Source: Microcaecilia unicolor
Lineage: Eukaryota
Assembly (NCBI RefSeq): GCF_901765095.1
Contig: NW_021963017.1
Location: forward strand, 110,253 to 174,252
Reading direction: 5' to 3'
DNA: 64,000 nt
The notes under the pieces were generated by a model. It ran no database searches and was not told the DNA's origin. It worked only from the letters and a program-made list of their open reading frames with translations. The translations under genes and the position numbers were made by a program. This document shows, piece by piece, positions 5,451 to 63,200 of the stretch. Position 1 is the first letter of the stretch; each line of letters starts with the position of its first letter.

Positions 5451-5934
5451 AAAAAGGTTTTATATACAGAAAATCTTTTGTAAAATATCCCCCCTCCCAT
5501 ATGCAATAAAACTGATTTCCTCATTAGATCAGTGATGTACAGCTTTAGTAGCTATATTAGTCCAGGAGAAAATGAAATTTTTCTGGGCTGAGATACATTA
5601 TTTTTAGGGTCTTTTAAAAAGTTCTTAAAATCTATAAAACATTCCATGAAAAGAATGGGGTAAGTTTAATATCTAACAACTTTTAAGAAAATTGATTTTA
5701 TGATTTCAAGAAATTGCACAAATTTGAGGTGTACTTGAAGGTTTGGGTTAGTATACCGCACCATAAATGCTCACATAAAAGTCCTGTATAAGAATATTTG
5801 TGTAAAGATGCTTGTCAATTGTTTTTACTGCAATTAAACAAGGAAAAGAAAAATGGGGATGAGGATCTTGTTGCAGCTGCTGAACCCCCATTATGATTGG
5901 GGGTGGGGGAGATGTATTACATCAAAGCCAAATT

Positions 5935-11350: not shown

Positions 11351-11530
11351 GGAGCAAAGATCAAGTATCTAGTATTTCACTTATAAGATACTGTGGGTAG
11401 ATAAAATGTGATAAAAATCCAGTCTACAATACCTTGCTGTTTACAGAAGCTATTCTGCATTTAAGGTGAATCACAATCATGACAACAAATATCACAAAAT
11501 AAAACTATTTATATGATATTTATGTTTTAC

Positions 11531-18100: not shown

Positions 18101-18416
18101 GCTGGATAGCTTCCCATGTGCTGTTTCATATATAGCTCCTTTATCTTTTATGAGTATTCAGACACAGTTTAATGACAATATAATGAATAGTTTATGCAGT
18201 CTTTTTAATACTTGCATGTTTTTAGTTTAATAGTGTTACTTATTGCAATCTTTTAATTGTAATTTTGCAATCTTTAATTGCACCTTTAATGAGTTTTTGC
18301 TTTCAATGTAATACATTTATAATAAAAATCCATGCCGGGTCATTCATGTGGTGCTACTGAATAAAGGATTTTTGCATATCATCTCCCAGGACTGGAGTCA
18401 GTTTGTCACCCTCTGC
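15119..18416. mobile_element. Unclassified ~3.3-kb element bounded by ~400-bp terminal inverted repeats (15119-15540 and 18040-18416, ~85% identical, one ~70-bp indel). Inserted into the DIRS-B recombinase gene. Internal ORFs (16097-16402, 16647-17003, minus strand) have no recognised domain.
   Basis: Reverse complement of 15119-15140 = 18395-18416 (gagtcagtttgtcaccctctgc); arm similarity continues ~400 bp inward. DIRS-B homology resumes exactly outside both arms. Confidence 0.5.
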
Positions 18417-19527
18417 GCACATGGAATGGAGACAACACCTTAGGAAGAAAGGAAGGAACCTTGTAAAGGGAAACTAAGTCCTCCATAAAGTCGAGATAAG
18501 GGTCACGACATGACAGACCCTGCAGCTCAGAACTTTTTGTGCCGAGGTAACTGTGACCAAAAAAACAGTCTTGAGAGTAAGGTCCTTAATAGAGGTCAAC
18601 TGCACAGGCTCAAACAGAGCCTCCGCAAGTACTCAGAAAACCAGGTTGAGGTCCTCACAAGGGACGTGCAGGGGGCGGGTAGGGGGCGCAAATGCGCCAC
18701 ACCTTTCATGAAAAGGGCCACCTTGCCATGCAAGGCCAGGGAGGTGCCCTTCACATTACCCTGAAGAAAGACCAGCTACTTGGACCCTCAGGGAGCCCAA
18801 TACCCTGACAGAAGGTAGGGATGTGGAAGACTTCTGAGAGTGCAGCAGAGTACAAACTACTGTGGGAGAAAAATCACACTTCTTTAAGCACTTCCTCTCA
18901 ATGGCCAGACCATAAACGAGAAGGGGTCCATATCTTCCATTTCTACTAGAACTTGCCAGAGAAGGTCCCAGCCTCTAGGCAATAAGAGATTCACTTTTGA
19001 ACAGGCACACGAGGACTGTGTGCCAAGGTCTGCGAGGCCAATCTGGGGCTACAAGAAAGATTACACGAGGATGACATGCAATCCTGTGTAAAAGACAGCC
19101 TATCAGAGATCATGGAAGGAACACATGCAGAGGTTCCACTTGTGGCCAAGGCTGGACTAGGGCATCTATCCCCCGAGAGGCTGGCTCCCTTCAATGCTTG
19201 AAGAAATGTCCCACTTTCACACTGGATCTGGAAGCCATCAGATTGACCAACAGGGGGTCCCACTAGTTCAGAATGAGCTGAAAGCTCAGCTGCCCCAGCT
19301 CCCATTCTCCCAGATCCAGGAGACAGCAACTGAGAAAGTCCACGTGCACATGAGGGTCTGCAGGTGTTTCTTTGCCCACTGACAAAGGTATGCTGCTTCC
19401 AAGGCTACTGCCTGACTTCTGGTGCCGCCATACTTGTTGATATAAGCCACGGCTATGGCAATGTCAGACATCAACCTGACCGCCTTTCCCCAAAGGAGCA
19501 GCTGGAACTCTAGAAGGACCAGATAAA

Positions 19528-19546
19528 CCCCCCCCCCCCCCCCCCC
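19528..19546. repeat. C19 homopolymer. Similar runs: C13 24865-24877, C23 29864-29886 (followed by T19), C16 51150-51165, G23 55294-55316, G18 55410-55427.
   Basis: Direct observation. Confidence 0.9.
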
Positions 19547-20499
19547 AGGTCACCTCCTGCTGAGTCCAGGTCCCCTGCACCATATGACCTAGGCAATGAG
19601 CTCCCCAGTCAAGGAGATTCACATATTCATATCCATGGTGACAAGCACCCATAGTGGGGGATCCAGCAGCACCCGTCTCAGGAGGTGAACTGGGATGTCC
19701 CCCACCAGACCAGACCGATTTTTGGCTTGGGCGAAAGTGTCTGAGGAAAGTCCTGTGAGAAGAGAGCCCACAAAAACAACGGAGCCTGCCACAAGAGCCA
19801 CATTTGAGCATCGCACACAGCACCACCTCCAGCAACACAGCCATGGAAACCAGGAGCTGCAATTGGTCCCATACTGAGGGGACCATGAGCTCATATAATC
19901 TGCGCTACTGCGCTCAAAGCTTCTCTGCCCTGTCCTCCAGGAAGGACACCATCCCCTGGGCAGAGTCAAAGCGGACTCCCAGATATTCCAGGACCGGGGA
20001 GGGAACCAGATGCCTCAAATCACAACCCAGCCCAGGTCTCCAACCAAGAGATGACCTGAAAGGTGGACAGCCTGATCTCTTTGGCTGAATCTGCCTGAAT
20101 CAGCCAGTTGTCCAGTAAAGATGTACTGTGATCCCCTGGTGATGTAGCTAAAGCAGCAACTACCACCATAACATTGGAGAAGGTGTGGGGGGCTTTGACC
20201 AGACCAAAGGGCAAGGCCCGAATGTCACGGCCTCACCGTGCTTGGCTCAGTTCCGATGCCTGACATCAGGGTCAGGTCCCGTGCATTCTTTGATGCTTCC
20301 TGCCTCTCTGCCCCTTGTTGACACACCAGTGCAGGTGCTCCTGGCATGGCTCCTGCAGGTCTCCTCCTCACTAATCATGCTGCACATGTGTGGGACTGTT
20401 TTTGACCAGCCATGGGTGGGAAGGGTCAGATGACGTCAGACGCCCAGAGATCTATTTCAAAGGACAGCTGACTCAGTTCCTTGCCTTGCAACAGGTCTG

Positions 20500-21249: not shown

Positions 21250-24200
21250 AAACTTACAACAATATATATGTGATGGATAAGAAAGTTTTTGCTGAGCAGT
21301 TTTGTTATTCAGTCTGTGTGTCTGGCTACAGTATGACAACCTGCTCCAGAGAGAACAATTATTTTGTATTGGCTTAGTGAGATACCAATAAAGATTTTTT
21401 TCTGGTTGCGCCTATATCTAAGTCTGATTGTCTCTCTTATTCCAGCCTCTAAGGCTGAAGTGTTTTCACCAGGGGCAATGGACAGGATTACACAAGGGTG
21501 ATTCGCCTACGGAAGACTGAACAGTCTGCCCCAACCATGGTCCAAGGGCTCAGCAAAACCTGTATGTGACACCAAAACTGCAAATAGCACCCAAGAATAC
21601 AGAAGCAAAGATAATGTTTGTGATGGGCTATGATGGGAATATGCAGATAGGCCTTAGCAAGATCCTAGGAGGTCTAGAACTTTCCCACACCCCTGAGGGA
21701 GCAAAAACATAACAACCCGTATGTACCTCGTGTAGCCACCTGAGAAGCGCTGCAACGTTGTATAGCCTAAGATCAGACAGATTGACTCCCCCCTCGCTAC
21801 CTGACGGGTGAGCTTGCTATACCCAATCCTAGCCCTGCGACCTCCCCAAATAAAGGACGATATCACTCCCCTATAGGCCCCCTCATCTTTACTATGAATC
21901 CACAGTGGCATCATTTGCAGAGCATAAAGGATCTTAGGGAACAACACCATTTTAACGAGTGCCACACGTCCTAAAAACGAAACAGGGAGATCCTTCCATT
22001 GTCGACATAGCTGTTTAATGGCCTCTAACTTGTCGCAGACATTTTTCTTGTATATATAGGTAAAGTCTAAATGCAGGTATACTCCCAGGTATTTCATAGG
22101 TCCCATTGTCAAGGCCAGAGGGAAGTCGGAGCAGCTCTTGCAGACACAATTAGCGGACAGCAACATTGCCTCAGACTTATCAAAATTAAACCTCAAACTG
22201 GAGAAAAATCCAAATTGTTGGATAAGATTTATCAAAATGGGTATCCCCCTTGTCGCCTGCCCCAGGAATATTAACATATCATCTGCAAAAAGATTGATTT
22301 TGTATTCACACTTCTCTACTCTTATTCCTGCCAAAGGCTCCAAGGCCAAAACAAAAACCATAGGCGACAGAGGGCACCCCTGTCTCGTACCCCTTTGCAG
22401 CGCAAACGACAGGGACAAAGCATTATTTATCAAAATTTGTGCTGTGGGAATCCTGTATAAAGCCAGGATCCCGTGCAGAAACTCCCCATATATGCCAAAC
22501 TGTGGCAAAACCCAAAAAAGATGGTCCCATAAAATTTTATCGAATGCTTTTTCTGCATCTAGGCTAACAATGATATCTCCCGGCTTACCCCCCCTTTGCT
22601 TGAATTGCACTCAACGCTCTTAGAATGTTAGTAGAGGCATACCTCCCTGGGATGAAGCCCAATTGGTCCTCATGCACTAGAATGGGAAGCACCTTTCCCA
22701 ACCGGGCAGCCATAATGCTAGCGAACAGTTTTATGTCCTGATTTAATAAGGAGATGGGCTGGTAGAAACACAGCAGCACCCGATCGCGGCCTGGTTTAGG
22801 CAGAACTATTATAGATGCATGTGTCATGGCACCCGTGGACTGCCCTTCTGTGCACAATGCTTCGCATACTTCGCTAAATGGCCCTGCTATCTGACCTCCC
22901 AGAATCTTGTAAAATTCAGGCCCCGGAGCTTTTGCTAGCATAAGCTTCTTTATAGCTTCTTATATTTCAAGCCCCTGAACAGACACATTCAAGATATCTC
23001 GGTGTTCTTGCGTCAGCGAGGGGAGCCTAAGGCCCTGAAAGAATGCCTCCCGTTTGTTCAAGTCACAACTCCCCGTCATACAGAGATTTATAAAAATCCA
23101 CAAACGCCTTTTGTAACTCCTCTTCCCTAGACAGTGTCTGCCCCGTTACAGATTTGATACAATTTATTAGTTGCTTAGCAGGTCTGTTTCGAACCAGGGT
23201 GGCCAGCAATCTATCCGTCTTATTCCCCCATCTGTGGAGTCGGTATTTGTATAACTGAATGTCCCTCATCGCCCGTTTATTCAAAGTGTCATTAATCTTA
23301 GTTTTTAACTCTCTGAAGGTGTTCCTAGCCGCTTCATCTCCCCACGCTGCCAATGTCCTAGCATCTTGGAGTAGGCGGAACTGGGTAAGAAGTTCCCCAT
23401 CTCCTTTTTTTCGAGTTCTGGCCATGTATTCTATAATTTGTCCTCTCATCACTGCCTTCCCTGCTTCCCACAAGGCGATCGGGTCAGATACAGATGACTT
23501 GTTATCTGTTAGGTAGTGTCCCCATTCCTTTTGGAGAAATTCCTTGAATTCTGGCTCTTGGTACAAGGTAGGATTCATGCGCCAACCCAATCTACTCCTA
23601 ACCCTCGAGAGGCTTATATCCACCCAAATCAGGCTATGATCAGAGACCACTCTCGCCTCAATCTCCGCAGAACGACTAACAGAGAAGAGAGTTTGTGATA
23701 GTAAAATATAATCTAACCTAGCCTGACATTTATGTACATGTGAGTAGAAAGTGTATTCTCTGTCATCCGGGTGTAGCACCCTCCAAACGTCCACTAGCCC
23801 CAGATCTCTTTGGAGAAGCCCTATTCCCCCTGTCCTCCATTCCCTTAGGCTGTGCTTTCGATGGATTATAGTCAACTAGTGGATCTGCCGTTATATTAAA
23901 ATCCCCTCCCACAACCAGTTGATATTCTGGCAGTGGTGCCAGAGCAGCCAACAGCTGAGAGTAGAATTTCTGGGAGTAGACGTTCGGAGCATATACCGAA
24001 CACAAAGCTACCCAGTCCCTGAATACTACCCGCCCAAATCACAAATCTTCCCTCAGGGTCCTGAACAATTTTGTGGCAGGTACTATCTAACCCTTTACTC
24101 ACGAGGATAGCTACTCCCCTTTGTCTACTGTTGTACGAAGAGTAGGCAATCTCACCCACCCAACCCTGTTTCAACTTAAGATGTTCTGGTGAAGACAAAT

Positions 24201-26350
24201 GGGTCTCCTGAAGCATAAGAACATCCACTCTTAATTGCCTACTATAATGCAAAAATTTTTTACGTTTAATTGGAGAATGAATGCCACCTACATTAAAGTA
24301 AGCTAACCATAAACTACCCATTCCCCCACACCAGGGCCATACTAATATAATACCGTAAGGACACAAAGACCCTCCAGGGCGACATCCCAGCAGTGCCGCT
24401 CCACAAGGAAAGCCATTCATGTTTCACCTGCAAGCATAGCAACCGCACTACAGCAACAAGTCTCTCATTCTTCAGCCTCAGCCCCCTATTCTTCCCCTGG
24501 AACCCCAACTTCGACCTCCCTTCCCCCCTTCCCAACTCCCCAACCTCCCTCCCCTCCCCATACCCCCATCTCACTCACTCTCAATACATCAATTTTATAC
24601 CAGACATCCCTCCCCAACAGCCTCACATGCATATCCACATCCGCACCCCCACTCATCCCGGCACAGATCCCTATGAAGCGAAACAAAATCCACACACCCG
24701 TTTCCAAACTCCCCCTCCATCCCACCCCACCTTTCGCCCTGATTGAGGCCCTATCTCCCTCAATCATGCCCAAAAAAGAAGAGCACCTAACCCCCTCCCC
24801 TGCCTCCTCCCACTGTAACCAAGGCAAATAAACAGCATGAAGTAACAAACAATCTAACAATCCACCCCCCCCCCCCCAAGGGGTGCTAACCCCTACCCAA
24901 CAATCAATGAATTAACTGCAATCAGTGACAGTACTTATTATGTCTGGATCCAACTGTCATCTCTCTGACAAAAATAGGTTCATTCGCCTCGTGTCGGCAC
25001 GTTGCTGCCGTTCATTTGTGGCACAACATTTCCGGTCAGAAACCTTCTCTGCCGTTTCAAGGGGGGAGGGGAGGACACGCACCCTCCACAACCGACCAGT
25101 GTCCTGTCAATCCCATCCCCTTAGACCCCCATGTCGGGTCCAGGAACCATTCTATACTGGAGGTGAAGTATGCGCACCCCCTCATCTCGTGTGAATATCA
25201 ATGTGCTATGCAGTATATATTTTATTCTTTGCGAGATCCGCTTACTGACCAATTCTTAAACTAATCATCCAAGCTGGAAAAACATCACTTTGCTTCTTCC
25301 ACTCTATAATCATATTTTTTAGCTTGCAACAGTCTATTAGTTGGCTAATCAAATTAAGATAACACTCCATGTCCTCCTTAACCAGGCAATCCCCGCACCT
25401 CCTCGGCCCTTTCTGGTACATTCAGTAACTTCTTCAGAAAGGCTTGTAGATCCTCTGCCTTTGTTAGAGTGAAAGTATGGTTGTTATGGGTAATCCGTAC
25501 CCTTGCTGGGTATTGGAATGCAAATTTAATTCCTTTCTCAAACAGCTTAGTACAGTACGGTGCCAACACCTTCCTCTGCTCCATGACTGACAGAAAAATC
25601 CTGGAACAGCAATATCCGATTTCCCTTAAATTCCACATTGCGCTGTTTCTTATATTGCTCACGAATTTTTGCTTTTATAGCATAATTCAGGTACCTTGCA
25701 ATGATCAGCCTTGGCCTCCCGTTGGCTTTCCTTCGCAGCCCGATGCGATGGACCCGCTCCACCTGACCCATGCCCATCTCCGGCTCTAGGCCCAGTTGTC
25801 TGGGAAGCCAGCTTTCTGTCAGCTTTCAACTCCACATCAGGGACAGACTCAGGAACACCCACAATCCTGATGTTATTCCATCGGCCCCTGTTTTACTGAT
25901 CCTCCACTCGGTCTACCAACGTACGGATTTGCGTCTCCAGTTCTCTTATACGCCCTTCTGCTGCTACCATATGATCTTCCTGAGCAGAGATACGCTCTTC
26001 TGCATGCTGTATTCTGGCCACGTGGCTGGTGATACATTCCCCGATTTCATCCATGCCTGCGAGTAACTTGGCAAGCTTATCATCCAATAACTGCGACATA
26101 TGCTTTAGGGATACTTGCACCATGTCCTCGTGCGCCGGAGCTAGGTTTTGGCTCCGCAACGGTGGGGTTGGAGGTGCTGGCAACACCGGTGACGCAATCT
26201 TGCTTTTCACCGCGCTGCCTTTCTCCTTTTCAGAGCTTTCACTGGCATTCCGCTCCTACACACCCGTTAATAACACACCATTTGTTTTTGCACACATTCG
26301 GTTGGCTCACAGGGCTACTTAACATGATATCAAGGTGCCGTAATCGTCAT
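21250..26350 (-). mobile_element. L1-clade LINE, near full length. ORF1 26210-25378 (coiled coil ...RIRELETQIRTLVDRVEDQ; CTD ...RLIIARYLNYAIKAKIREQ...KGNRILLFQDFS; ...IKFAFQYPARVRITHNNHTFT), C-rich spacer 25370-24420, ORF2 endonuclease 24420-23063 (SPIKRKKFL..LMLQETHL; ...SDHSLIWVDISL), RT 22941-21654 (LDAEKAFDKI; FADD), then 3' region.
   Basis: Track ORFs 25893-26210, 25547-25777, 25378-25662, 23896-24420, 23063-23875, 22585-22941 and 21654-22610, all on the minus strand and collinear. Confidence 0.75.
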
Positions 26351-32302: not shown

Positions 32303-34140
32303 CTATAGAGAATCCGAGGCCTTTTCTTCTCTAAAAATGAGAGGTGGTAGCCGTGTTAGTCCACTCTTAAGGTTATCAACAGAAATCAAACAAAATAAAA
32401 CATGGAAAAGAAAATAAGATGATACCTTTTTTATTAGACATAACTTAATACAGTTCTTGATTAGCTTTCGAAGGTTGCCCTTCTTCGTCAGATCAGAAAT
32501 AAGCAAATGTGGTAGCAGATAGTACATATAAGTGAAACATCCAAGCATTACTTTGACAGTCTGGGAGGGTGGGGGTGGGTAGGAGGTATGCATGGGGACA
32601 TCAAAGCATTTCATTGATATTTTAACAGGATGGGCGTGGGTAGGTGAGAGGAGGGTGATAAACAGAGAAATACAATTATATGGTTTATAATGGGCTAGAA
32701 AACCCAGATCTTTGTTAAGTCCTGTCTGTTGGGTGTCAAAATATTCAATCATTCTGACTTCAAAAGTCTTACGTTCCTGTATTGTTTTAAAGTTACCTTT
32801 CAGGATTCTAACTATTAAATCACTGGTGCAGTGTCCTGGTCTTGTAAAATGCTGGCCCACCGGGGTGGGAACCTGACTGGCACCGGCTATCTTCATGTGA
32901 TGTTTGTGCAGACTGAATCTTGTCTTATGCATCTGGCCTGTTTCTCCAATATAGCATCCTTCATTACATTTTTTACACTGAATGATATATACCACATTGG
33001 AAGATGAGCATGTGAAAGATTCCTTTATGTTGAATATTTTTTCTTTGTGAATGACAGTGGGGTCCTGTGAAATGTTTTGGCATAGCTTGCAGCTGGATGT
33101 ATTACAGGGAAATGTGCCCTTCTTTTCCTTTTCAGTCTGTGTTGGGAGTTTACTTCTGATTAGCTTGTGTTTTAAGTTGGGTGGCTGTCGGAAGGCAAGC
33201 ACTGGTGGGGATGGGAATATCTCTTTCAGTAATTCATCTTCCTGGAGTAGAGGCTGTAGGTCTCTTATGATTTTCCTCAGTTTCTCCAGCTCTGGGTTGT
33301 ATGTCACTTCAAGGGGGATTTTGTCTGTGGCTTTTTTTTTTCTTTGTACTGTAGCAGACTTTCCCTGGGTGTTTTGAGGGAGGAGGCAATATTCTTGGAG
33401 ATTACTTTTGGGGTTGTAGCCTGTTTGAAGGATGCAGTCAGGGTTTCAAGGTGTCTGTCTCTATCCCCTGGGTCCGAGCAGATACGGTGGTATCTTGTGG
33501 CTTGGCTGTAAATAATGGCTCTTTTTGTATGTGAAGGATGGAAGCTGGAGTTGTGGAGGTAGCTGCATCTGTCTGTGGGTTTCTTGTATATAGATGTTTG
33601 TATACATCCATCACTGATTGAGACTGTGGTGTCCAAAAAATTGACTTTTTCTGGGAAGTAGTCAATTTTGAATCTGATTGTTGGATGGTATGTATTGAAG
33701 GAATAGTAAAATTGTTTCAGAGTTTCTTCCCCTTCCGTCCAAATCATAAAAATGTCATCGATGTACCAGTAGTGTTTTAGAGGTTTGGTCTGGCATGTAT
33801 TCAGAAATGTCTCTTCCAGCTCAGCCATAAAAAGGTTGGCATATTGGGGTGCTGTCCTGGTGCCCATCATTTGTAGATAGATATCATTCTTAAAGCGGAA
33901 GTAGTTGTGAGTTAAAATGAATTTGATTAATTTTGTAATAGTTTCTGGTGAGTATTGATGGTCCAGTGTGGATGTTTTTAGGAGTCTCCCACATGCAGCT
34001 ATGCCATCCGCATGTGGAATGTTGCTGTATAGTGATTCTACATCCATATTGATAACCTTCTCTAAAAAGAAATTCCCATAAGCGTTATATTTATTTGTTA
34101 CATTTGTATCCCACATTTTCCCACCTATTTGCAGGCTCAA
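32303..34140 (-). mobile_element. Penelope-like element, 5'-truncated. RT (33304-34140: MGTRTAPQYANLFM motif B, YIDDIF motif C) followed by a C-terminal GIY-YIG endonuclease (32303-33307: C-x-C zinc module, then NVVYIIQCKKCNEGCYIGETGQMHKTRFSLHKHH).
   Basis: Two long open frames of 278 and 334 aa (one frameshift apart) with PLE-specific RT and GIY-YIG signatures. Confidence 0.75.
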
Positions 34141-40678: not shown

Positions 40679-42320
40679 CTAGCTCTACCCGGCCACGCGT
40701 TGCTGTGGCTCAGTCTGGTTAAATAGAAAAGAAAGAAAAGAGGAAGTGCACGTTTCTAATATGTTTAATTTCACAATGCTTGTGGGTATACAATATTTTT
40801 TGTTGTTCCATTGTGTGTGCAGAGATAAGAGATTGTCTGGTTTGCCGACTGTAGAACATGCAACATATAATTGTCCATATGAGAAGCAATCCGTGTGTAG
40901 ATGTAAACAGGTGAATTCTAAAGATTGGCCCTGAGCTTTGTTGATGGTGATTGCAAATGCCAATCGAATTGGGAATTGCAATCTCTTAAATTGAAATGGC
41001 ATATCTGCTGGAATCATAGGAATGCGAGGAATGAGGACATCTTCACCTTTGAAAGGTCCTGTCAAGACTGTTGCTTGTACGACATTGGTCATAAATTTTT
41101 TTACTGCAAGCCGCGTGCAGTTGCAAAGCTTTGGCTGGTTGATATTTCGCAACATGATAATTGGCACGCTGATTTTCAATTGCAGTACGTGCGGTGGCAT
41201 CCCTGGCAGATCGAGTGAATTGAAAAATTCTGTTGGATAATTAACCGCTTCATCTGCTTCCAGGACAGTGTCGACGGACTTGTATGTGAGTGGCTCGCTT
41301 TGAATGTTAGACTGAATAATATTGTTCAGTTCGTAGACGTCTTTGTTCTTGGCCGCAAGAATAGCTCGTTCACTCAGCGAATCGTGATTGTTATAATTGG
41401 TTAGAATATTGGGAAATACTCTCTCAACCAATTGTTCTTTTGACATCACTAAATTGGAGAAGTTATGAGGCAATGAAATTCGTCCTGAGGTCAGATCAAC
41501 CGGCACGTTTCCATTACCAATTTTCAGCAATTGATGTGACAATATCTGAGCTGATTGATCATTTTGCAATTGGACACGCATATTTGTAGTTAAGTTTAAC
41601 GTCTTTACGTGTTGCCACAAAGTAGAGCATTTTAGGCAAGCATTTATTTCGTCAGCTGGTGTGGATCGAGGAACTACAGGTAATGTTTGCCTGAAATGTC
41701 CTGCAAGCAATATTAATGTGTTCCCAAATGGTCTGATGTTTCCACACAAATCTTGCAATGATTGATCAAGAGCCTCGAGGGATTTTTTTTCGCTGTGCTG
41801 TTTCCTCAGCACATATTTGAGTTATTCTTTGTCTGTTTCGCTCGTTCGCTGATGCCCGTTCTTCCTCAGTTTGATTTGCAATTGTAGGTATATAAAAACA
41901 CGCGCGTATTCGAATGCAACTTTGTGTTGAAATTTCAAAGCAATCGGTGAAGACCTTTCAGAAATTTAAGCCACTGTCAGCCTGTCGCGTTGATTCTGTT
42001 GAGAACAAAGCAGATCTGAAGCTGCAGAACGCGATCGCCATGCTCGCAACCGTGCACCAAGTCTGGCTGCACGTCGCTGTGCTGTTTCCTCGGCACATAT
42101 TTGAGCCATTGTTTGTGTGTTTCGCTCGTTCGCTGATGGCCGTTGTTCCTCAGTTTGATTTGCAATTACTCGTCGCACTACTTCCACTCCGCGAGTACGA
42201 CAGCTGTGACATAAAAACATGCGCGTATTCGAATGCAACGTTGTGTCCAAATTTGAAAGCAATCGGTGAAGAACTTTCGGAGATTTAAGATTTTGAACAA
42301 ACGAACATTTACATTTTTAT
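40679..42320 (-). mobile_element. Helitron-like fragment. ORF 41812-40685 is the C-terminal half of a PIF1-family helicase (LILLAGHFRQTLPVV; FAITINKAQGQSLE...GQLYVACSTVG). The 3' terminus has a short GC hairpin (GCCACagcaacgcGTGGC), 9 nt, then CTAG (40682-40679) abutting host T. The host target is A|T (aagaaA|Ttatatag). The 5' end is non-canonical or truncated.
   Basis: 375-aa open frame with helicase motifs IV-VI of Helitron Rep/Hel proteins. Terminus and target dinucleotide fit Helitron rules. The split L1 codons flank it. Confidence 0.55.
41795..42290. repeat. Two direct copies of a ~180-215-bp unit (41795-41970 and 42075-42290) separated by ~100 bp, at the 5' side of the Helitron-like fragment. 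The helicase ORF's first codons (MLRKQHSEKK) lie in the first unit.
   Basis: cgctgtgctgtttcctc(a/g)gcacatatttgag...gtttgatttgcaatt...gcgcgtattcgaatgcaac...gcaatcggtgaaga...tttaag appears in both copies. Confidence 0.6.
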
Positions 42321-43319
42321 TTATATAGATTATGTAGTTAGGATCTCAATTTAAATGTTTCTGAAATTCAGGATTATCTTTCTCAGGTAATTCTCCTATG
42401 CCTCTCGGAGGTTGATCAGGCTTTTCTTGAGGCTCCCTTTCCCATCAAGAGATCTTGAAAGTGATAAAGGGGTTGGGTGGGGGCAAAACTCCGGGTTTGG
42501 ATGGTTTTAGTGTTAATTCTATGAAATGTTTGGTATGGAGGTGAGCCCCCTCCTTCTCCGGATAGGCAATTCTAGTTGGGAGGGAGGGCGCTTGGCGAAG
42601 AGCATGTGAGAGGCTGGCATTTCTGTACTTTTGAAACCGGGCAGAGATTCAGCGGTTTGTGGTTCATATAGACCGATCTCCCTTATAAATGTAGATATCA
42701 AAATTTTGGCAAAGGTGATGGCAGATAGGATGGGTCAGGTGCTTCCTACATTTATTCACCAGGATCAGTCCTGATTCCAGCCCAGAGACAAGTGACTGAT
42801 AATATCTGTAGGACGCTGAAATTACTAAGGTTGGTTAGGGACTGTGCAGAACCAGTGACCTTTCTAGCTACTGATGCAGAAAAGGCCTTTGACAGGTTCG
42901 CTTGGCCCGTTCTTTGGCAAGTTATGTTGGTTATGGCATTTGGGCCGCAACTAATTGGATGGTTACAACAATTATATGCAGGACCAATGGCTTGGATCCG
43001 TACTAACGGTGGGTACACCAACACCATTTCAATAGAACGGGATACTCAACAGGGTTGTCCCCTTTCTCCATTGCTGCACTTGCTCAATGGGTTTGGTCTT
43101 TGGGAGATATACGGGGAATTGAAGTGGGAGATGACATGCATAAGATTGCTTTGTTTGTGGATGACTTCTTATTTTATATTACCTCTCCAGGGTTGACATT
43201 GTCTCCCCACAGGATGAATCTAGATTGCGGCAGGATTTTCCTTTTTACTGGGCAAAACGTAAACTTTTGTTGTTTGGGTATTCTAAAGACTGGTGCCAGG
43301 TTTTTTTCTTTAAATTATC

Positions 43320-43560
43320 TTAGCGGAGTTTAAAAAAGGTTTGTACGGCTTCCTAAATGAAAAGTCCATAGACCGATATTAAATGGACTTGGGGGAAAAT
43401 CCACTATTTCTGGGATAAGCAGCATAAAATGGTTTGTACATTTTTGGGATCTTGCCGGGTATTTGTGACCTGGATTGGCCACTGTTGGAAACAGGATGCT
43501 GGGCTCAATGGACCTTTGGTCTTTCCCAGTATGGCAATACTTATGTACTTATGGCGACAG
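43320..43560 (+). mobile_element. CR1 3'-end fragment (AEFKKGLYGFLNEKSIDRY* + conserved 3'UTR) nested in the L1.
   Basis: 43380-43560 is near-identical to 3520-3700. Confidence 0.5.
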
Positions 43561-44882
43561 ATTTGAGATTTACTTTGTTGGCGAAAAGGTTGGTAGGGTT
43601 GTACAGCTATTTTATCATGCCTTTTTTTTCCTTTTTCAGACATTCCCAGAGGTTGTACCTCAGTCTATTCTGCGGGTTCTTCACGCGGGGATATCCACAT
43701 TCATCTACGGTGGGAAGCCCTCTCGACTTTATCAAAAAGTGACGTGGCAGGCAGTTGACCTGGTGGGCAGAGGTGTTCCCAATGTTCTTTGGTATTATTG
43801 GCCTTGAGAATTAAAGCTGATTTAGCCTGGGAAAGCAAAGATACTTACCTGTAGCAGGTATTCTCCAAGGACAGCAGGACGATTGTTCTCACATGTGGGT
43901 CGAAGTACGCAGCAGCCCAGGAATCAGGAAAAATTTTGCAAGCAAAATAATAACGTCTTTCCAGAGAGTTCCAGGAACTGCGCATGCACGAACGACTTCC
44001 CACCCGCCGTGTGAGCGTGCCTCTTTAGTTTAATCAAAAAGCATAAAAACAACAACAACTCCAAAGGGAAGGAGGGCAGGTTTGTGAGAACAATCAGCCT
44101 GCTGTCCTCGGAGAATACCTGCTACAGGTAAGTATCTTCGCTTTTTCTGAGGACAAGCAGGCTGCTTGTTCTCACATGTGGGGTATCCCTAGCAACCAGT
44201 CTCACTCAAAACAATGAACATTGGTCAACTGGGCCTCGCAATGGCGAGGACATAACAGATTGACCTGAAACCAAAATCAACTAACAGAGTACAGCCTGGA
44301 ACAGAATCAAAATGGGTCTAGGGGGGGTGGAGTTGGATTCTAAACCCCGAACAGATTCTGCAGCACCACCTGCCCAAACCGACTGTCGCATCAGGTATCT
44401 TGCTGAAGGCAGTAATGAGATGTGAATGTGTGGACTGATTACCACGTTGCAGCCTTGCAAATCTCTTCAATGGAGGCCAACTTTAAGTGGGCCACTGACG
44501 CAGCCATGGCTCTAACATTAAGAGCTGTGACATGATCCTGTAGAGTCAACCCAACTTGGGCATAAGTGAAGGAAATGCAATCCGCTAACCAATTAAAAAT
44601 TGTGCGTTTTCCGATGGCGACTCCCCTCCTGTTGGGGTCGAAAGAAACAAACTGGGCGGACTATCTGAAGGGCTTTGTCCGCTCCACGTAAAAACGCCAA
44701 TGCTCTCTTGAAGTCCAAGGTATGCAAACTGCTTTCACCAGGCAGGTATGAGGACGGGGAAAAAATGTTGGCAAGACAATTGACTGGTTCAGATGGAACT
44801 CAGACACCACCTTCGGCAAGAACTTAGGGTGCATGCGAAGGACTACTCTGTTCTGATGAAACTTGATATAAAGGTGCATGAA

Positions 44883-45080
44883 CTACCAGGGCCTGAAGCT
44901 CACTGACCCTACGAGCTGAAGTAACAGCCACCAAGAAATGACCTTCCAGGTCAAATACTTCAGATGGCAGGAATTCAGTGGCTCAAAAGGAATTTTCATC
45001 AGCTGGGTGAGAACGACGATGAGATCCCATGACACTGGTGGAGGTTTGACCGGGGGCTTTGACAAAAGCAAACCTCTCAT
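44883..45080 (-). CDS. DIRS-A tyrosine recombinase N-terminal core-binding segment (PPPVSWDLIVVLTQLMKIPFEPLNSCHLKYLTWKV); the catalytic part appears truncated.
   Basis: The W.L..VL..L...PFEPL motif is shared with 61484-61708(-) and resembles 52410-52829(-). Confidence 0.4.
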   Translation of the reverse strand: MRGLLLSKPPVKPPPVSWDLIVVLTQLMKIPFEPLNSCHLKYLTWKVISWWLLLQLVGSVSFRPW

Positions 45081-45368
45081 GAAGCAAACAACTAAAGGCT
45101 GTCCAGAGATAGGCTTACCTTCTACACGGCGATGATAAGCACTAATGCACTAAGGTGAACTCTTACAGAGTTCATCTTGAGACCCAACTCTGACAAGAGT
45201 AGAAGGTATTCAAGCAGGGTCTGTGTAGAACAAGAAAGGGGATCTAGGGCCTTGCTGTCACACCAGACGGCAAACCTCCTCCATTTGAAAGAGTAACACC
45301 TCCTGGTGGAATCTTTTCTGGAAGCAAGACTTGGGAGACACCCTCTGAAAGACCCAAGGAGGCGAATT

Positions 45369-45866
45369 CTAAGCTCTCAACATCCAGGCCGAGAGAGCCA
45401 GGGACTGGAGGCTGGGATGTAGAAGCGACCCCTCATTCTGAGTGATGAGGGTTGGAAAACATTCCAATCTCCACAGTTCTTCAAAAGACAACTCCAGAAG
45501 AAGAGGGAACCAAATCTGATGCAGCCAGAAAGGAGCTATCAGAATCATGGTTCCATAATCTTGTTTGAGTTTCAGCAAACTCTTCCCTATTAGAGGTATG
45601 GGAGGATATGCATACAGAAGGCCTGATCCCCAATGCAGGAGAAAGGCATCCAACGCTAGTCTGTCGTGGGCCTGAAGCCTGGAACAGAACTGAGGGACCT
45701 TGTGATTGATCTGATTGGTAAAAAGATCCACAGAGGGGGTGCCACACGCTCGGAAGATCTTGCGGACAACGTCCATGTTAAGTGACCACTCGTGAGGTTG
45801 CATTACCCTGCTCAGTCTGTCGGCCAGACTGTTTACGCCTGCCAGATAAGTGGCTTGGAGAAACAT
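45369..45866 (-). CDS. DIRS-A RNase H C-terminus + conserved DIRS/Ngaro downstream domain (YLAGVNSLADRLSR...VDLFTNQINHKVPQFCS...LIAPFWLHQIWFPLLLEL).
   Basis: N..AD.LSR RNase H end and the VDLFA..N..LP.F.S...APPW..Q.WFP block. Confidence 0.5.
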   Translation of the reverse strand: MFLQATYLAGVNSLADRLSRVMQPHEWSLNMDVVRKIFRACGTPSVDLFTNQINHKVPQFCSRLQAHDRLALDAFLLHWGSGLLYAYPPIPLIGKSLLKLKQDYGTMILIAPFWLHQIWFPLLLELSFEELWRLECFPTLITQNEGSLLHPSLQSLALSAWMLRA

Positions 45867-46707
45867 GCAGTGATGGCGTGCCCAAAGCTACATCTGGACG
45901 GCTTCCTGACAAAGAGGGCAAGATCCGGTGCCCCCTTGCTTGTCGGTATAATACATGGCAACCTGATTGACTGTCTGAATCAATATGACTTGGTTGGACA
46001 GCCGGTCTCTGAAAGCATTTAGAGCATTCCAGATCACTTGCACTTCCAGGAGATTGGATCTGAAGACCTTTCTCCTGAAAGGACCAAGCTCCTTGAGTGT
46101 GAAGCCCATCTACATGAGCTCCCCACCCCAGGAGGGATGCATCCGTCGTCAGCACTTTTTGTGGCTGAGGAATTTGGAATGGACGTCCCAAGGTCAAATT
46201 GGGCCAAATCGTCCACCACTGCAAGGAATTCCGAAAGTCGGTGGACAGTTGGATCACATCCTCTAGACTTCCCGCAGCTTGATACCACTGGGAAGCTAGG
46301 GTCCAATGAGCTGATCTCATGTGTAGGCGTGCCATGGGAGTCACATAAACTGTCGAGGCCATGTGCCCCAGAAGTCTCAACATCTGCCGAGCTGTGATCT
46401 GTTGAGACGCTCGAACGAAGGACACTAGGGACAGGAGGTTGTATGCCCTCGCCTCGGGGAGATAAGCTCGAGCTGTCTTTGTGTTCAACAGTGCTCCAAT
46501 GAATTCCAATTTTTGAACTGATTTGAGATGGGACTTTGAATAATTGATTACGAACCCCAGTAGTTCTAGCACCTGAATAGTTATTCGCATGGACTGTAGA
46601 GCGCCTGCCGAGGTGCTCTTCACCAGCCAATCATCGAGATAAGGGAACACATGCTTTCCCAGTCTGTGCAGCGACGCAGCGACTACCACCAAGCACTTCG
46701 TGAACAC
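45778..46707 (-). CDS. DIRS-A RT / RNase H ORF (309 aa: ...FPYLDDWLVKS..., INYSKSHL, ...LEFIGALLN..., ...TTDASLLGWGAHV...).
   Basis: YxDD box, the KS.L...FLG-type motif and the TDAS..GWGA RNase H start. Confidence 0.55.
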   Translation of the reverse strand: MFTKCLVVVAASLHRLGKHVFPYLDDWLVKSTSAGALQSMRITIQVLELLGFVINYSKSHLKSVQKLEFIGALLNTKTARAYLPEARAYNLLSLVSFVRASQQITARQMLRLLGHMASTVYVTPMARLHMRSAHWTLASQWYQAAGSLEDVIQLSTDFRNSLQWWTIWPNLTLGRPFQIPQPQKVLTTDASLLGWGAHVDGLHTQGAWSFQEKGLQIQSPGSASDLECSKCFQRPAVQPSHIDSDSQSGCHVLYRQARGHRILPSLSGSRPDVALGTPSLHVSPSHLSGRRKQSGRQTEQGNATSRVVT

Positions 46708-46918
46708 TCTGGGCGCAGATGCCAGACCAAAGGGCTGTACACAATACTGAAAGTGCTGAGTTCCCAGCCGAAATTGAAGCTACTTCCTGTGAGCTGGGAG
46801 TATCGAGATGTGTGTATAAGCATTCTTTAAATCCGGAGAGCATAGCCAATCGTTCTCCTGAATCATGGGAAGAAGTGTGCCTAGGGAAACCATCCTGAGC
46901 TTTTCTCGAACCAGATAA

Positions 46919-47419
46919 TTATTCAGGCCACCCAGGTCGACTCCCCTTCGACATCGGTGGAGTGGGATTGGGCATCGACTTCTCGACATCGCCACAGAGG
47001 ACATCGTTCCTCAGCGTCGAGGCAGGTCCAGTGTCAGAATACCTTGACACAGGTTGTGTCTGACACTGAGCAAGAGCGCTCGTGGGAATCAGAGGAAGAT
47101 CCCAGGTACTTCTGATGAATCCTTTGGGAGGCCTCGAGACAGGTGGAGATTCACTTGACGCCTCACTGCTCCCAGTGCGAGTTGGTCTCTCAGCAGCCAT
47201 TACCTCTCTCCTCGACGTCGATGCTCCTGTCGATGTCGACGATGCCAACCTTGGTACCAATGTCGATGTCGAGGGTCCGGACTGAGCCCCAAAAAGCTTT
47301 TCCCATTGGGCTTCTTGGGACGCTTGGGTCCGTTTCTTCATACGAAGACAGACTACAAGCAGCTGGGCTATGGTCGGGCCCAATCTGTACCTGAGATGGT
47401 CCGGTTGCACCGAGTACAA
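46919..47419 (-). CDS. DIRS-A gag-like ORF (166 aa).
   Basis: Homologous to the second copy at 4353-5024(-). Confidence 0.4.
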   Translation of the reverse strand: MYSVQPDHLRYRLGPTIAQLLVVCLRMKKRTQASQEAQWEKLFGAQSGPSTSTLVPRLASSTSTGASTSRREVMAAERPTRTGSSEASSESPPVSRPPKGFIRSTWDLPLIPTSALAQCQTQPVSRYSDTGPASTLRNDVLCGDVEKSMPNPTPPMSKGSRPGWPE

Positions 47420-49179
47420 CGTTTGAAGCTGCTGGGTGTCTTCGATGACATGGAAGAAAAAACGGTTTTGATGAAATCAAACGACAAAAAAAGCACAAAA
47501 AAAGGAAAAAAAACCCGACCGTGCAGCCAAAAGGCCGAAGCGATTCTCACAGAGAAGTTCTTCCTGGGCCTCAGAGAGAAGCGACGCGTAAAACAAACTG
47601 CACCTCACCGCGGAGAAAAGAAGAACTAAAGAGGCACAGTCACATGGTGGGCAGGAAGTCGTTCGCGTTAGTCACGCGACATAATTCTCTGGAAAGACTA
47701 TTATTTTGCTTGAAAAACTTTTCCAGATTCCTGGGCCGCTGCGGACGTCGACCCACATGTGAGAACAAGCAGCCTGCTTGTCCTCAGAGAATGTGGATTA
47801 CATTCTTCATTGGTTAGGCTAGAGCAACATGGAATGCAGGGGTTTACCTTGCAGAGTTCTCTTTGGGCCTCTTTCCAAAAACATATCAGAAGATTTCAGA
47901 AAATCCATGGGTATTCCATCTACTTTTTTTAAGGAGCTGCCCTAAATCTAGACTCAGAGGTGGCCGTCGCTCTTCATCACTGCCCTATATGAAATATGAA
48001 CCTGCCTTTTCAGTTGGGGTGGGATTTGTGACATTACAACGTTGGGGATAATTGGTTTTGCTTAGGTTTAGGGATATGTTTTATGTGGGGGATTTGATCC
48101 CATTTCCGAGGTTACAAAAGACGTTTCGGATTCCTGCTACTGATTTTTATTTTCAAGTCACACACTACATTTCCTGTCAAGGGTGGTTACAGGCAAATCC
48201 TGATGACACAGAGCATTTTGAAAATCTATAGAAAGATTTGGAAAAGTTGAGGGGTGTGGTTTCCATTATTTATTGGTTCCTTAGAGGGGGGAATTTCAGA
48301 AACATGCTTTTATGGACCACTGGGAAAAAGATTTTGGTAGTACACTGACAGTGAGTGAATGGCAAGCAGTATGTCTGGAGATTAAGAAAGCTTCAATTTG
48401 TGTCTTGTTGAAAGAGAATGCTTATAAAGTCCTTACCCAATGGTATTATGCTCCAGTACAGTTGCATAAGATGTTTCCCACAGCCCCTGAAATTTGCTGG
48501 CATTGGGGTAAAGACTGAGGGACATTTCTACACATCTGGTGGGAATGTGACTTAATTCAGGATTTTTGGACTGCAGTAACAGAGTTACTTACTCTCCTTC
48601 AGTTGGGGACTCTATTTCCTAAAGACCTTAAGTGGTGTTTATTGGGCTTGAATAATCAATGAGGCCTTAAATGGCAGTGGAGATTCAAACGTATGTGTCT
48701 GGCAGTGGAGATTCAAACGTATGTGTCTGGCAGCGGCTAAATCTGATATAGCTGCTCATTGGAAGCGATCTGCAGGCTCCACAAAACTGGATTGGATCTT
48801 CAAATTGTAGACTGTTAGTGAACTAGAAAAGTTAACTGATAAACTGATGAATGGACTCATCTGGAACCCATACTGCAATTGGGGGTGACCCTCATGAGGT
48901 TCTTCAAGTTTTTGCCCAAGGGGGAAGGGGTATTATTAAGGTAGCAATCTGGGGCACTGAAGAGTACCTGTGCTCTAGAGTACTACCGATTGGTTTCTTT
49001 TGTAGAGGTGTAAGGGGGGGGGGGGATTGTAAGGGTTTGAGGGGGCTGCTTTTCCAATAAAAGAAATGTATGTGTTTTTGCTGTGTTTAGCAATATTCTT
49101 GATGGTTGTATTTCTATCAACTGTTTATGATTCTCTATGCTTACATTAATAAAAACCTATTGTTACAAAAAAAAAAAAG

Positions 49180-59251: not shown

Positions 59252-59752
59252 CTGCTCTAGTTTTTGCAAAAGAGGATCATTATGAATTTCTTCTCCGGGA
59301 CTTCCTAAATCACCAGTCCTAATGTCTTCCCATTCAATTGGGGCATCTTTAAATATCATGGGTCCCTTCTTAGCCCAATGTGATGCTCTCAATGGGTTTA
59401 CTGTTTCCACTGTGTCACTTTCTTCATAAAAACAGTTAGCCTCTGAAATTTCTTCTTCATGAAGAGAGTCTTCATTTATAGAATTGCCACTGCCTGAGAT
59501 AAGAACGGATTTTATCTGGGAATTAACTGAGATGTTTCCACTTCTACACAGTGGGCTCTCGCTAATTGTTTCCAGAGCAGAAAAGGAAGGATTAAGTATA
59601 ACTCCAGCTCGCGAAGCGCTGGACATCCACTGTGTTATAAAGTTCTGTTCAATATTCAGATCTGAAGTGGTAGGCATTTTGAAAAATTTGGCTCCAGTCA
59701 GTTCTACCACATAAACGGCATGATTTGCAGCATTCCAATTGGCTTTACATGT
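59252..59752 (-). CDS. CENPJ: CENPJ first coding exon. Acceptor ...gatcagtag|ACATGT; 5'UTR 59752-59678 containing short uORFs; start ATG 59677-59675 (ttcaaaATGc); donor CTAGAGCAG|gtaaga after 59252. Encodes [32 protein letters not shown]...DPLLQKLEQ.
   Basis: Open frame from ATG to a canonical GTAAGA donor. N-terminus aligns with human [35 protein letters not shown] and the end with DPLFKKLEQ. The track ORF 59180-59710 begins at a GTG, not ATG. Confidence 0.75.
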
Positions 59753-60689: not shown

Positions 60690-62200
60690 GAGAAATGTCT
60701 TCTTACCTGATAATTTTCTTTCCTTGAATCATAGCAGATGAACCCAGAAACAAATGGGTTATGACCATTTACCAGCAGATAGAGATAGAGTACAAGTACT
60801 AAACTCTGACAGATAGGATGGTAAGCAGCTAGTCAGCCACTATTTCTCATAAAAATGCGTTACGAAAGAACATGCCAAACAAAACTTCTCCTTCCTCATA
60901 GAAAGGAGGAATAATATATGAACAGGAACTTGAAGAAACCTGAACCTGTAACAACAATCCCCAAACAGAAAAAGTGAACACCTAACCCAGAAGGTCGTTG
61001 AGGGAGGGCCTCCAGATTTATCTGCTGTGATTCAAGGAAAGAAAATTATCAGGCAAGACAAATTTCCCCTTCCTCATCATCAGCAACAGATAAACCCAGA
61101 GACAAATGGGATGTAGCAAAGCAGTCCTTATGCTGGGCAGGTGACAAACACCAGCAGAAAGTACTGATGCTCCAAAGTATATGCCTCCAAGTACTATAGT
61201 AGAACTTGATGTCGAAAACATGCAAAGATGCAAAATCCACATCACATGCCTCCCTGCTAATGAATGGAAGGAACAAAGGCTGATTAATGTGAAAAGATGA
61301 GGTGAATTTCAGCAAGGAGGACAGCACAGTTCTGGATTCAGAAAAGGTAAGGAATGGATCTCTGAAGGATAAGACCTGAATCTAAAAGATTCATCTAGCC
61401 AAAGTAACCACTACAAGCAAAACAGACTCTAAGGTTTTAAGGTCCTTGACAGTAGCTTTCTTCAAGAGCTCAAAGGGAGACTTCTAAAGGGCCCTGAGAA
61501 CCAGTTTAAGATTCCAAACAAGGGAAGGAGCACATAGAGGAGGCTTAAGAAGACTGACTCCCCCACTAAGAAAATGCACCACATCAGGGTAAGAAGACAA
61601 GGAAGAATGGGCCAGATAGCCACAATAACATTCCAAGGCAGCCACTTGAACCCTTAGAAAGTTGTAGGCCATACCCTTTTCAAAAACTTCTTGTAAAAAA
61701 AAAGCCAAAATTTGATGTAAAGATTACTGAAACGTGGAAATGGCCCTTTCCCAACAAAATGCTTGAAATACTCTCCATACCCAAGCATATGCAAAAGATG
61801 TGGAATGCTTCTTAGCCAGAAGTAAAGTAGTAATCAAATCCTCAAGATATCCTTTTCATCCTTAGTTGCGACCTGTCAAGATCCAAGCTGTAAGACCAAC
61901 TAGGGACCGCAGGTGATGACTTGGACAGCGCAGCTTGCTCCGCACTTACCAGGTCCAGATTGTGGATCTGGGAACCTGGGAATCACCCGTTAGGCTCAAT
62001 CAAGCTGTGCAGCCTCAGCCTGCACTGCTAGGAGCTAGGCCAAGCATCAGGAGCAACAGCCTGAACAACCTACCATCTGCTGGAGGTAGGGAAATACTGA
62101 AGTTTTCCAATCAGCACCAGCCCACATACCTGCAACGTCACTGGAATGGAGAAATTATGTATTACCTGATAATTTACATTCCTTTAGGCAACTACACTGT
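60690..62200 (-). mobile_element. DIRS-like family B 3' region: recombinase N-terminal segment (61484-61708: ...LLKPPLCAPSLVWNLKLVLRAL) plus an inverted/direct terminal-repeat complex (60697-60740 inverted vs 61020-61060; direct 60745-60772 vs 61093-61120).
   Basis: Shares the aaagaaaattatcaggtaa / ttacctgataattttc terminal block with 14530 and 62530. Confidence 0.4.
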
Positions 62201-62479: not shown

Positions 62480-63200
62480 CAGATTCCCAGGTCCAAATCT
62501 TCTGAAGGCAGGTTGCAGAAAAGTGCAGCTAACTAAAGAAAATTATCAGGTAAGACATCATTTCTCCTTCCTTAGTGTTTAACTACACTGTTCTGCACAA
62601 GTGGGTTGTACCGAAGCAAATTTACTGGGCGCGGGAAGACAACCCATCCCCCATACATGACGGATCCAATACATAGTACTTGCCAACTGAATGGAGCGAC
62701 GATCACATTGCTGCTCTTCAAATCTCTTCAGGAGCCACTGCCCAAACCTCTGCCCAGGAAGCAGCTTGAGCCAGTGTTGAGTAGGCCTTGAGGCCCTCAG
62801 GCACAAGACGATTCTTGCAATACCCACCTTGATCCACCTTGCAAGGAGGCCTTAAAGTCTACCTGGCCCTCCCTAGGGCAATAAAAAAAGAACAAAGAGG
62901 TGATATGAAAGGTGAAAATGATCCGTCTCCTTCAGGTACTTTAACCACGTCCTCTGGACATCCAGCTTGTGGAGTCTCTGATCCACAGAACAATGGAACT
63001 TCCTGATTCACAAAGAAGAAGAAACCACCTTATTGAGAACAGAAGGAACCAGGGAAACAGAAACAGAGTCATCTGCAATAGATACAAGTCCCAAAAAGAC
63101 AGAGCCTACAGATCAGAAACATTTCAAGCCAAGATGAAGGCGACCAGAAAAACTGTCTTGAAGTGAGATCTTTAAAGGAGGCGGAGTGCAGAGGCTCAAA
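62480..63200 (-). mobile_element. Another DIRS-like family B 3' end (terminal block 62500-62590 plus ORF 62579-62827).
   Basis: 62500-62960 is collinear with 14500-15010 at roughly 75-80% identity. Confidence 0.45.

Follow-up and report, generated by a model that had tools for sequence, protein, structure and literature searches.

A decayed DIRS1-like retrotransposon copy that retains its terminal repeats and internal complementary region in Microcaecilia unicolor

What kind of retroelement lies at positions 43832-47791 of a 64,000-nucleotide stretch of Microcaecilia unicolor DNA (RefSeq assembly GCF_901765095.1, contig NW_021963017.1, positions 110,253 to 174,252 of the forward strand; hereafter the window), and in what state has it been preserved? 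The original prediction, made by a model from the sequence, placed a near-complete DIRS-like tyrosine-recombinase retrotransposon of ~3.95 kb at 43838-47790. An element of that size is present, with limits refined to 43832-47791 (3,960 bp; the sense strand is the minus strand), but near-complete it is not. Very probably, what lies here in the genome of a vertebrate is a dead copy of a retrotransposon of the DIRS1-like superfamily (order DIRS). This class assignment, which agrees with the DIRS layout of inverted termini and internal complementary region first proposed for the locus, rests on the geometry of the repeats, on the domain content and on full-length relatives with the same layout. 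The parts of the element, read in its sense direction, are as follows.

47624-47791, minus strand: left (5') inverted terminal repeat (ITR), starting TTCTCTGAGGACAAGCAGG..., identified from inverted repeats and by alignment to the reverse complement of the right ITR
47130-47451, minus strand: remnant of the gag N-terminus, with its ATG at 47451 and beginning MSSKTPSSFKRCTRCNRTISGTD..., from translation
46927-47129, no strand given: inverted 200-bp segment between gag and the reverse transcriptase (RT), from blastn against a second copy
45378-46941, minus strand: pol, consisting of the RT without its first ~116 residues, RNase H (RH) and a C-terminal Dam-like methyltransferase (MT) domain, from Pfam, tblastn and frameshift-aware alignment
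46641-46627, minus strand: RT motif YLDDW, from translation
46146-46117, minus strand: RNase H motifs TDAS..GWGA, from translation
about 45870-45378, minus strand: Dam-like MT domain, from homology to relatives
44349-45328, minus strand: tyrosine recombinase (YR) gene, full-length and pseudogenised, from tblastn, an alignment of 15 relatives and frameshift-aware alignment
44143-44182, minus strand: left half of the internal complementary region (ICR), whose 40 nt repeat the start of the left terminus in reverse complement, from a three-way alignment
44083-44144, minus strand: right half of the ICR, whose 62 nt repeat the end of the right terminus, with its right extension, in reverse complement, from alignment
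43859-44030, minus strand: right (3') ITR, repeating the left ITR in inverted orientation, from inverted repeats, alignment and blastn (E=1e-36)
43832-43858, minus strand: right extension (rE), CCTGCTACAGGTAAGTATCTTTGCTTT, 27 nt, from alignments; the element ends in TTT

The repeats were analyzed by self-comparison of the element. The true ITR pair, 47624-47791 and 43859-44030, is 79% identical over ~170 nt (self-blastn E=1e-36) and appears as two inverted blocks, 47699-47778 with 43873-43952 (80 nt, 89%) and 47624-47665 with 43989-44030 (42 nt, 86%). The left terminus and the left ICR half (47752-47791 and 44143-44182) are 98% complementary over 40 nt (E=8e-13), and the right terminus and the right ICR half (43832-43893 and 44083-44144) are 94% complementary over 62 nt (E=6e-21). 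The latter pair, together with an extra direct copy that repeat analysis places at 43873-43899 and 44156-44182, corresponds to the inverted complements with a direct copy first noted at the 3' side. The two segments originally taken as mutually inverted termini, 47750-47785 and 44150-44185, do form a real inverted repeat, but the second of them is the left ICR half and not a terminus. When reverse-complemented, the ICR (44083-44182) reads as an unbroken fusion of the right terminus (its last 62 nt) and the left terminus (its first 40 nt), the two halves meeting and overlapping within an A5 run that marks the circular junction. The complement of the rE was found in these alignments only in the right ICR half, and the rE is absent from the left ITR. 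The element starts with TTC and ends with TTT, and AAA(AA) is found at the ICR junction. The 27-nt terminal motif had no chance match in 100 shuffles of the window; the terminal and ICR repeats are real and well beyond chance. As single-stranded DNA, the 3' 363 nt are predicted to fold into a long stem (-99.4 kcal/mol, z=-14.1). The copy has kept every cis-acting part: two ITRs, the rE, and an ICR complete in both halves and at their junction. The flanks read ...CCACA on one side and CCCAGG... on the other, with no target-site duplication visible at this single decayed copy, for which the searches described below found no empty site.

The coding regions are recognizable along most of their length. 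The RT and RNase H motifs of the original prediction were recovered at the positions listed above, and the conceptual pol translation matches Pfam RVT_1 (E=3.8e-11). By tblastn, 46941-45378 corresponds to residues 117-640 of the 643-residue pol from locus L001, 182-706 of 713 from L002 and 91-618 of 623 from L003. A search with pol found 396 homologues in vertebrates and metagenomes, the best being a protein of Pelodiscus sinensis that is 44% identical and carries RVT_1 and RT_RNaseH. Identities, frameshifts and stops were counted by frameshift-aware protein-to-DNA alignment; against this best match (P0001, residues 151-675 of 682) pol has 234 identities in 520 positions, one frameshift (46056) and two in-frame stops (46782 and 45890). 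Over its last ~170 residues pol is homologous to a region in the relatives that weakly matches Pfam Dam in 17 of 32 cases (best E-value 0.0042).

The recombinase is better represented than first described. Its N-terminus and the domain downstream of RNase H, both in the original prediction, were found by tblastn and alignment, but the catalytic region, then thought to be missing, is there as well. The segment 45328-44349 matches residues 3-329 of the 329-residue YR of L001, and frameshift-aware alignment to a Latimeria protein (P0121, residues 10-337 of 340) gives 177 identities in 324 positions with 5 frameshifts and 3 in-frame stops; the best YR homologue in the search, also from Latimeria, was 51% identical. 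Core-binding and catalytic domains are both present, and in the alignment of 15 relatives the box I Arg (SARRVSEL), the Arg of HxxR, the Trp (AATW) and the Tyr (SHYCL) are all kept. Full-length relatives had been suggested at the outset as the place to look for the catalytic tetrad; the relatives in the alignment have AHSTRA where the window copy has ALNVRA, a change of the HxxR His to Leu. The conceptual recombinase has a weak Pfam match to the integrase SAM-like N-terminal domain, Phage_integrase is matched by 10 of 16 YR relatives, and the YR family profile matches Cre/Tre recombinase (E=2.5e-9) over the core-binding domain and the H-x-x-R...W...Y segment. As judged from its sequence, the YR of the window copy is inactivated. 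In the contigs of the relatives L001, L003, L005 and L105 the genes occur in the order gag, pol and YR.

Taken together, pol and YR contain 6 frameshifts and 5 in-frame stops, that is, 11 disabling mutations in 2.6 kb, which cannot be squared with an earlier reading of the open reading frames (ORFs) as long and largely unbroken. According to the accepted model, the ICR is the template on which the termini are rebuilt, and the two should therefore be identical at insertion (PMC3266345); here, 5 of 102 positions differ between them. The divergence between this copy and a second copy of the family in the window is ~20%. Because of these disabling mutations, the ICR-terminus differences and an identity of only ~80% to the second copy, the suggestion that the copy is fairly young lacks support, and it appears instead to be old and decayed.

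The region between gag and the RT has been lost or rearranged. A gag gene was part of the original prediction, and its N-terminal remnant is indeed present, with a Zn-finger-like Cys/His motif that frameshifts and a small deletion have disrupted; the LAP2alpha-like core found in the relatives is not, since tblastn with the gag proteins of relatives gave no match to it in the element. Pfam likewise returned no match for the gag remnant. We interpret the absence of the gag core as a deletion in the window copy. The gag of the DIRS1-like relatives L001 (1308-2246) and L004 (4488-6119) matches Pfam LAP2alpha, with E=9e-7 for L001; the LAP2alpha-specific domain is said in published work to derive from a DIRS gag, and the matches of the relatives agree with this. 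The RT of the window copy starts only at the LDLR.LN motif (residue 91-182 in the numbering of the relatives) according to all three relatives aligned to it, so that ~116 residues are gone. A second copy of the same family, found elsewhere in the window, helps in reading this region:

3879-5452, minus strand: another copy of this DIRS family, preserved only at its 5' end and ~80% identical, from motif search, blastn and the ORF list
5187-5452, minus strand: left ITR of the second copy, from motif search and blastn
4591-5043, with ORF 4353-5024, minus strand: gag N-terminus of the second copy, from blastn and the ORF list

The gag N-terminus of the second copy is better preserved, with an intact Cys/His motif (FKRCTLFNQTISGTDTHAWCIQCLGLDHSPAACSLC), and ORF 4353-5024 has a match (E=1.5e-6) in the Pelodiscus gag, to its Zn-finger-like N-terminal part. 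This copy is cut off beside a LINE (long interspersed nuclear element) fragment at 3449-3682. By blastn, positions 3099-3301 of the main element match 4101-3879 of the window at 83% on the opposite strand, and the neighbouring gag and ITR parts are colinear; the second copy also has ~490 bases more than the main copy between its gag part and the 200-bp segment. Because of this opposite orientation and these extra bases, the main copy probably underwent both an inversion and a deletion between gag and RT. Comparison with gag from eight relatives gave no significant match from which the ancestral orientation of the 200-bp segment could be read. Relatives with the same ITR and ICR layout measure 6,143 bp (Pelodiscus, L002), 6,532 bp (Rhineura, L004) and 4,819 bp (L026), and the window copy is ~2 kb shorter than the closest vertebrate ones; with most of gag and the start of the RT gone and 200 bp inverted, the description near-complete does not hold. 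Through the ~2-kb internal deletion and the inversion, the 6 frameshifts and 5 stops, and the His to Leu change in YR, coding capacity has been lost, and the copy can neither mobilize itself nor supply proteins to others. It is therefore nonautonomous, as originally suggested, but because it is decayed and rearranged and not because a recombinase domain is missing.

An alternative account of this state is that the copy belongs to a subfamily of nonautonomous deletion derivatives that moved in the 3.96-kb form with proteins supplied in trans by full-length elements, the deletion thus preceding insertion. Retention of every cis-acting element (ITRs, rE and ICR halves) alongside the loss of internal coding sequence is what such a derivative would show, and the RT of Dictyostelium DIRS-1 does act in trans on RNA of a truncated element (PMC7192593). 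In that same experiment, however, the truncated element did not complete retrotransposition (PMC7192593). The only other copy in the window is arranged differently, with its ~490 extra bases and the 200-bp piece reversed, and the numerous frameshifts and stops fit simple decay after insertion. We consider a mobile deletion derivative unlikely, and a once longer element that decayed in place is preferred.

With regard to class, all the features of a DIRS1-like element that can be read from DNA were found: ITRs, a bipartite ICR, an rE, YR, RT, RH and MT domains, and neither long terminal repeats (LTRs) nor an integrase. Only an intact catalytic tetrad and the gag core are wanting, which we interpret as decay of this copy rather than as non-membership. 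The RT and RH together with YR, in the absence of a DDE integrase, are common also to the Ngaro and PAT-like groups, and the domain downstream of RNase H had at first been labelled DIRS/Ngaro. Ngaro and PAT elements are, however, bounded by split direct repeats instead of ITRs plus an ICR, and the MT domain sets DIRS1-like and PAT elements apart from Ngaro, which lacks it (PMC3266345). No split direct repeats (A1...B1 A2 B2) were found in the element; its termini are inverted, an ICR is present, the only direct repeats are of 21-35 nt and derive from the ITR palindrome, and the relatives have a homologous Dam-like domain. It is thus very improbable that this is a Ngaro-like or PAT-like element rather than a DIRS1-like one. 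Long direct LTRs, named at the outset as evidence that would speak against DIRS, were looked for by repeat analysis and none was found in the element, the termini being inverted; Pfam detected no DDE integrase (rve) domain in the element and none in the 120 pol homologues listed of the 396. That the element is a fragment of a Gypsy or BEL LTR retrotransposon with fortuitous or unrelated inverted repeats is hardly credible, for although DIRS RT and RH are related to those of Ty3/Gypsy (PMC3266345) and the relatives match Pfam RT_RNaseH, the long direct repeats and DDE integrase of such elements are absent here, their 4-6-bp target-site duplication is not visible, a Cre-like recombinase lies downstream, and the three-way ICR and terminus complementarity (E=1e-12 to 1e-36) recurs in relatives.

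Several points weigh against the assignment to a dead DIRS1-like copy, or against details of it. The closest protein relatives are distant, with top identities of 45% for pol and 55% for YR. The full-length master and the exact size of the deletion are projected from these distant relatives. The MT region of the window copy itself has no Pfam match, and the domain was assigned solely by homology to the relatives. The exact termini and the absence of a target-site duplication depend on one decayed copy, and the A-run at the ICR junction implies an overlap of 2 nt and not the canonical 3 nt, possibly as the result of an indel. The element is a member, novel in sequence, of a well-described class.

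The founding member of the class is reportedly DIRS-1 of Dictyostelium (Cappello et al. 1985). DIRS-1 of D. discoideum shares with the window copy the ITRs, YR, RT, RH and MT domains and an ICR that pairs with the two ends (over 33 + 55 nt, against 40 + 62 nt here), but its YR ORF overlaps pol and its ITRs are ~300 bp long. The closest known systems, from the annotation of Piednoel et al. 2011 (PMC3266345), are XtDIRS2 and XtDIRS3 of Xenopus tropicalis and AcDIRS1 of Anolis; they share the order ITR, gag, pol (RT/RH/MT), YR, left and right ICR, ITR and rE. For XtDIRS2 and XtDIRS3 the tabulated ICR lengths are 43-61 and 41-65 and the rE lengths 30-34, with TTT ends and an AAA junction (PMC3266345); the ICR of 40/62, the rE of 27, and the TTC and TTT ends against an AAA junction give the window copy dimensions like those published. 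XtDIRS2, XtDIRS3 and AcDIRS1 have no target-site duplication, and none could be seen at the one decayed copy in the window. The window copy differs in length (3.96 kb against 5.6-6.2 kb), in having gag and the RT N-terminus mostly deleted, 200 bp inverted and its ORFs broken, and in belonging to another sequence family with no close protein match. Identical repeat geometry is seen in the Pelodiscus sinensis element at L002:2342-8484, reached through the best pol match (P0001), in which the left terminus and left ICR pair over 43 nt, the right ICR and right terminus over 70 nt and the ITRs over 152 nt. This element also shares the Zn-finger-like gag N-terminus, the pol-YR order and a motif in its right terminus, described below, that resembles a 5' splice site; it differs in its length of 6,143 bp, its long ORFs, a pol only ~45% identical and unrelated ITR sequences. 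Among more distant systems, the YR belongs with the tyrosine recombinases typified by Cre and lambda Int, from which it differs in being encoded by a eukaryotic retroelement, and in the window copy it is frameshifted and has the His replaced by Leu.

Replication of such elements is known from the literature on active relatives and not from the window copy, which was read as sequence. In those relatives transcription starts from the left ITR and gives an RNA without the extreme termini, which is reverse-transcribed by the element's own RT and RNase H. The ICR, in which the complements of both ends stand side by side, would then serve as the template for rebuilding and joining the missing termini, and the YR would recombine the joined ends with a short matching target, leaving no target-site duplication. 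For DIRS-1, the only element in which replication was followed by experiment, in Dictyostelium, Malicki et al. 2020 (PMC7192593) describe a transcript without the extreme ends, restoration of the ends on the ICR, and cDNA intermediates that are single-stranded and mostly linear; without the ICR the first cDNA strand is still made, but retrotransposition fails. How DIRS elements are primed and how the RNA 3' end is defined are still unknown (PMC7192593). In the general model the two ends pair with the ICR, where they are filled in and linked to each other, and the YR uses a target trinucleotide identical to the junction, without target-site duplication (PMC3266345). With its TTC start, TTT end and AAA(AA) at the ICR junction, the window copy appears to fit this model.

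The right terminus holds one further feature:

43841-43851, minus strand: CAGGTAAGTAT, a consensus 5' splice-site motif of 11 nt inside the rE, its complement lying in the right ICR at about 44120-44139

CAGGTAAGTAT pairs perfectly, over 11 nt, with the 5' end of U1 small nuclear RNA. It scores 12.7 bits with a position weight matrix for 5' splice sites (p=0.0007 against dinucleotide shuffles of the arm). Since most metagenome contigs break at the ITRs, the 106 loci yielded ~12 usable right termini, contigs ending in exact 55-nt inverted arms having been excluded as assembly artefacts. A sense-oriented 5' splice-site motif is present in 9 of the 12, in termini whose sequence is otherwise unrelated; each of the nine scores 8.7-12.7 bits with p <= 0.03 against dinucleotide shuffles, and for the 12 combined the Fisher p is 2e-12 and the binomial tail 4e-10. 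On the antisense strand of the 12 termini the motif was not significant (p=0.08), and the 12 arms had no other sequence in common. Besides the window copy, the motif occurs as AGGGTGAGT in Pelodiscus (L002:8464-8472), CAGGTGAGA in Rhineura (L004:9510-9518) and ACGGTAAGC in Ranitomeya, and in five metagenome-derived elements; the loci other than L002 and L004 are L006, L005, L011, L015, L026 and L105. A mini-intron or back-splicing arrangement, with a 3' splice site at the start of the left terminus joined to the 5' splice site of the rE, was also considered and set aside, as the 3' signal was not significant (Fisher p=0.053). In the searchable papers, which do not cover Repbase and older subscription papers, nothing relevant was found that links DIRS elements to splice sites, U1 or circular RNA. 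Tentatively, the motif, together with the complementary stretch of the ICR, may represent a functional element that is conserved among animal DIRS1-like retrotransposons and has gone undescribed, though we rate this as the less probable outcome. Its role could be to bind the U1 small nuclear ribonucleoprotein and so control 3'-end formation, to bring about nuclear retention or decay of read-through or ITR-driven antisense transcripts, or to act as a true splice donor; alternatively, it could be a recognition site for the recombinase or the RT that merely resembles a splice or U1 signal.

Turning to the surroundings, the host gene is CENPJ; the copy lies between two of its exons, hence within an intron, and reads in the same direction as the gene:

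11520-13106, minus strand: ORF of the large CENPJ/CPAP exon (tubulin-binding region), from homology, with Pfam PF25779 in the homologues
59180-59710, minus strand: ORF whose start is presumably the N-terminal coding exon of CENPJ, by its likeness to the human sequence

A search with the large exon gave best matches only 38-46% identical, mostly from birds and Logan assemblies. On the low-coordinate side the DIRS copy adjoins a LINE RT fragment on the plus strand (RVT_1 at 42792-43196, in the ORF region 42792-43807), and plus-strand ORFs resume on the high-coordinate side (47820-48518), where Pfam found no match in the ORFs tested. We infer that the copy inserted within one older LINE. A blastn search with the joined flanks found nothing that spans the junction, and hence no empty site or uninterrupted LINE paralogue, and tblastx against the other L1-like copy of the window likewise found nothing spanning it. 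The flanking LINE sequence also contains a perfect 28-nt tandem duplication at 48672-48727 (TGGCAGTGGAGATTCAAACGTATGTGTC twice). With proteins of the relatives as tblastn queries, at least five further, more divergent DIRS-like fragments of gag, pol or YR were found on the minus strand of the window, and because of these the source genome appears to be rich in DIRS elements. These fragments and other remnants of transposable elements in the window are:

56694-57463, minus strand: DIRS-like fragment, from tblastn
18409-20226, minus strand: DIRS-like fragment, from tblastn
61205-61825 plus 62667-63001, minus strand: DIRS-like fragment, from tblastn
52027-52571, minus strand: DIRS-like fragment, from tblastn
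14683-15009, minus strand: DIRS-like fragment, from tblastn
883-2330, plus strand: other transposable element remnant
21654-24420, minus strand: other transposable element remnant
32303-34140, minus strand: other transposable element remnant
40685-41812, minus strand: other transposable element remnant

Among the last four are a LINE with an endonuclease (Exo_endo_phos_2), an L1-like ORF2 (RVT_1 E=2e-19), an RT-bearing element with a Cys-rich downstream ORF that is possibly Penelope-like, and a PIF1-like helicase ORF typical of Helitrons. In the databases, DIRS1-like pol sequences, 29-40% identical, were also found in 17 contigs (L087-L103) filed as bacterial metagenome-assembled genomes (Sedimenticola, Breoghania, Brevinema, Cyanobacteria and others); these are almost certainly eukaryotic host DNA binned with bacteria in error.

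In itself the copy matters little, being one more dead DIRS1-like copy in a vertebrate intron rich in transposable elements, and its value lies chiefly in repeat annotation and in showing the ITR, ICR and rE geometry clearly. The complementarity of the ICR and the termini, kept even in so heavily decayed a copy, supplies a clock within the element itself (5 differences in 102 nt), independent of LTR divergence. If the motif in the right terminus were functional, it would add an RNA-processing step to the DIRS replication cycle.

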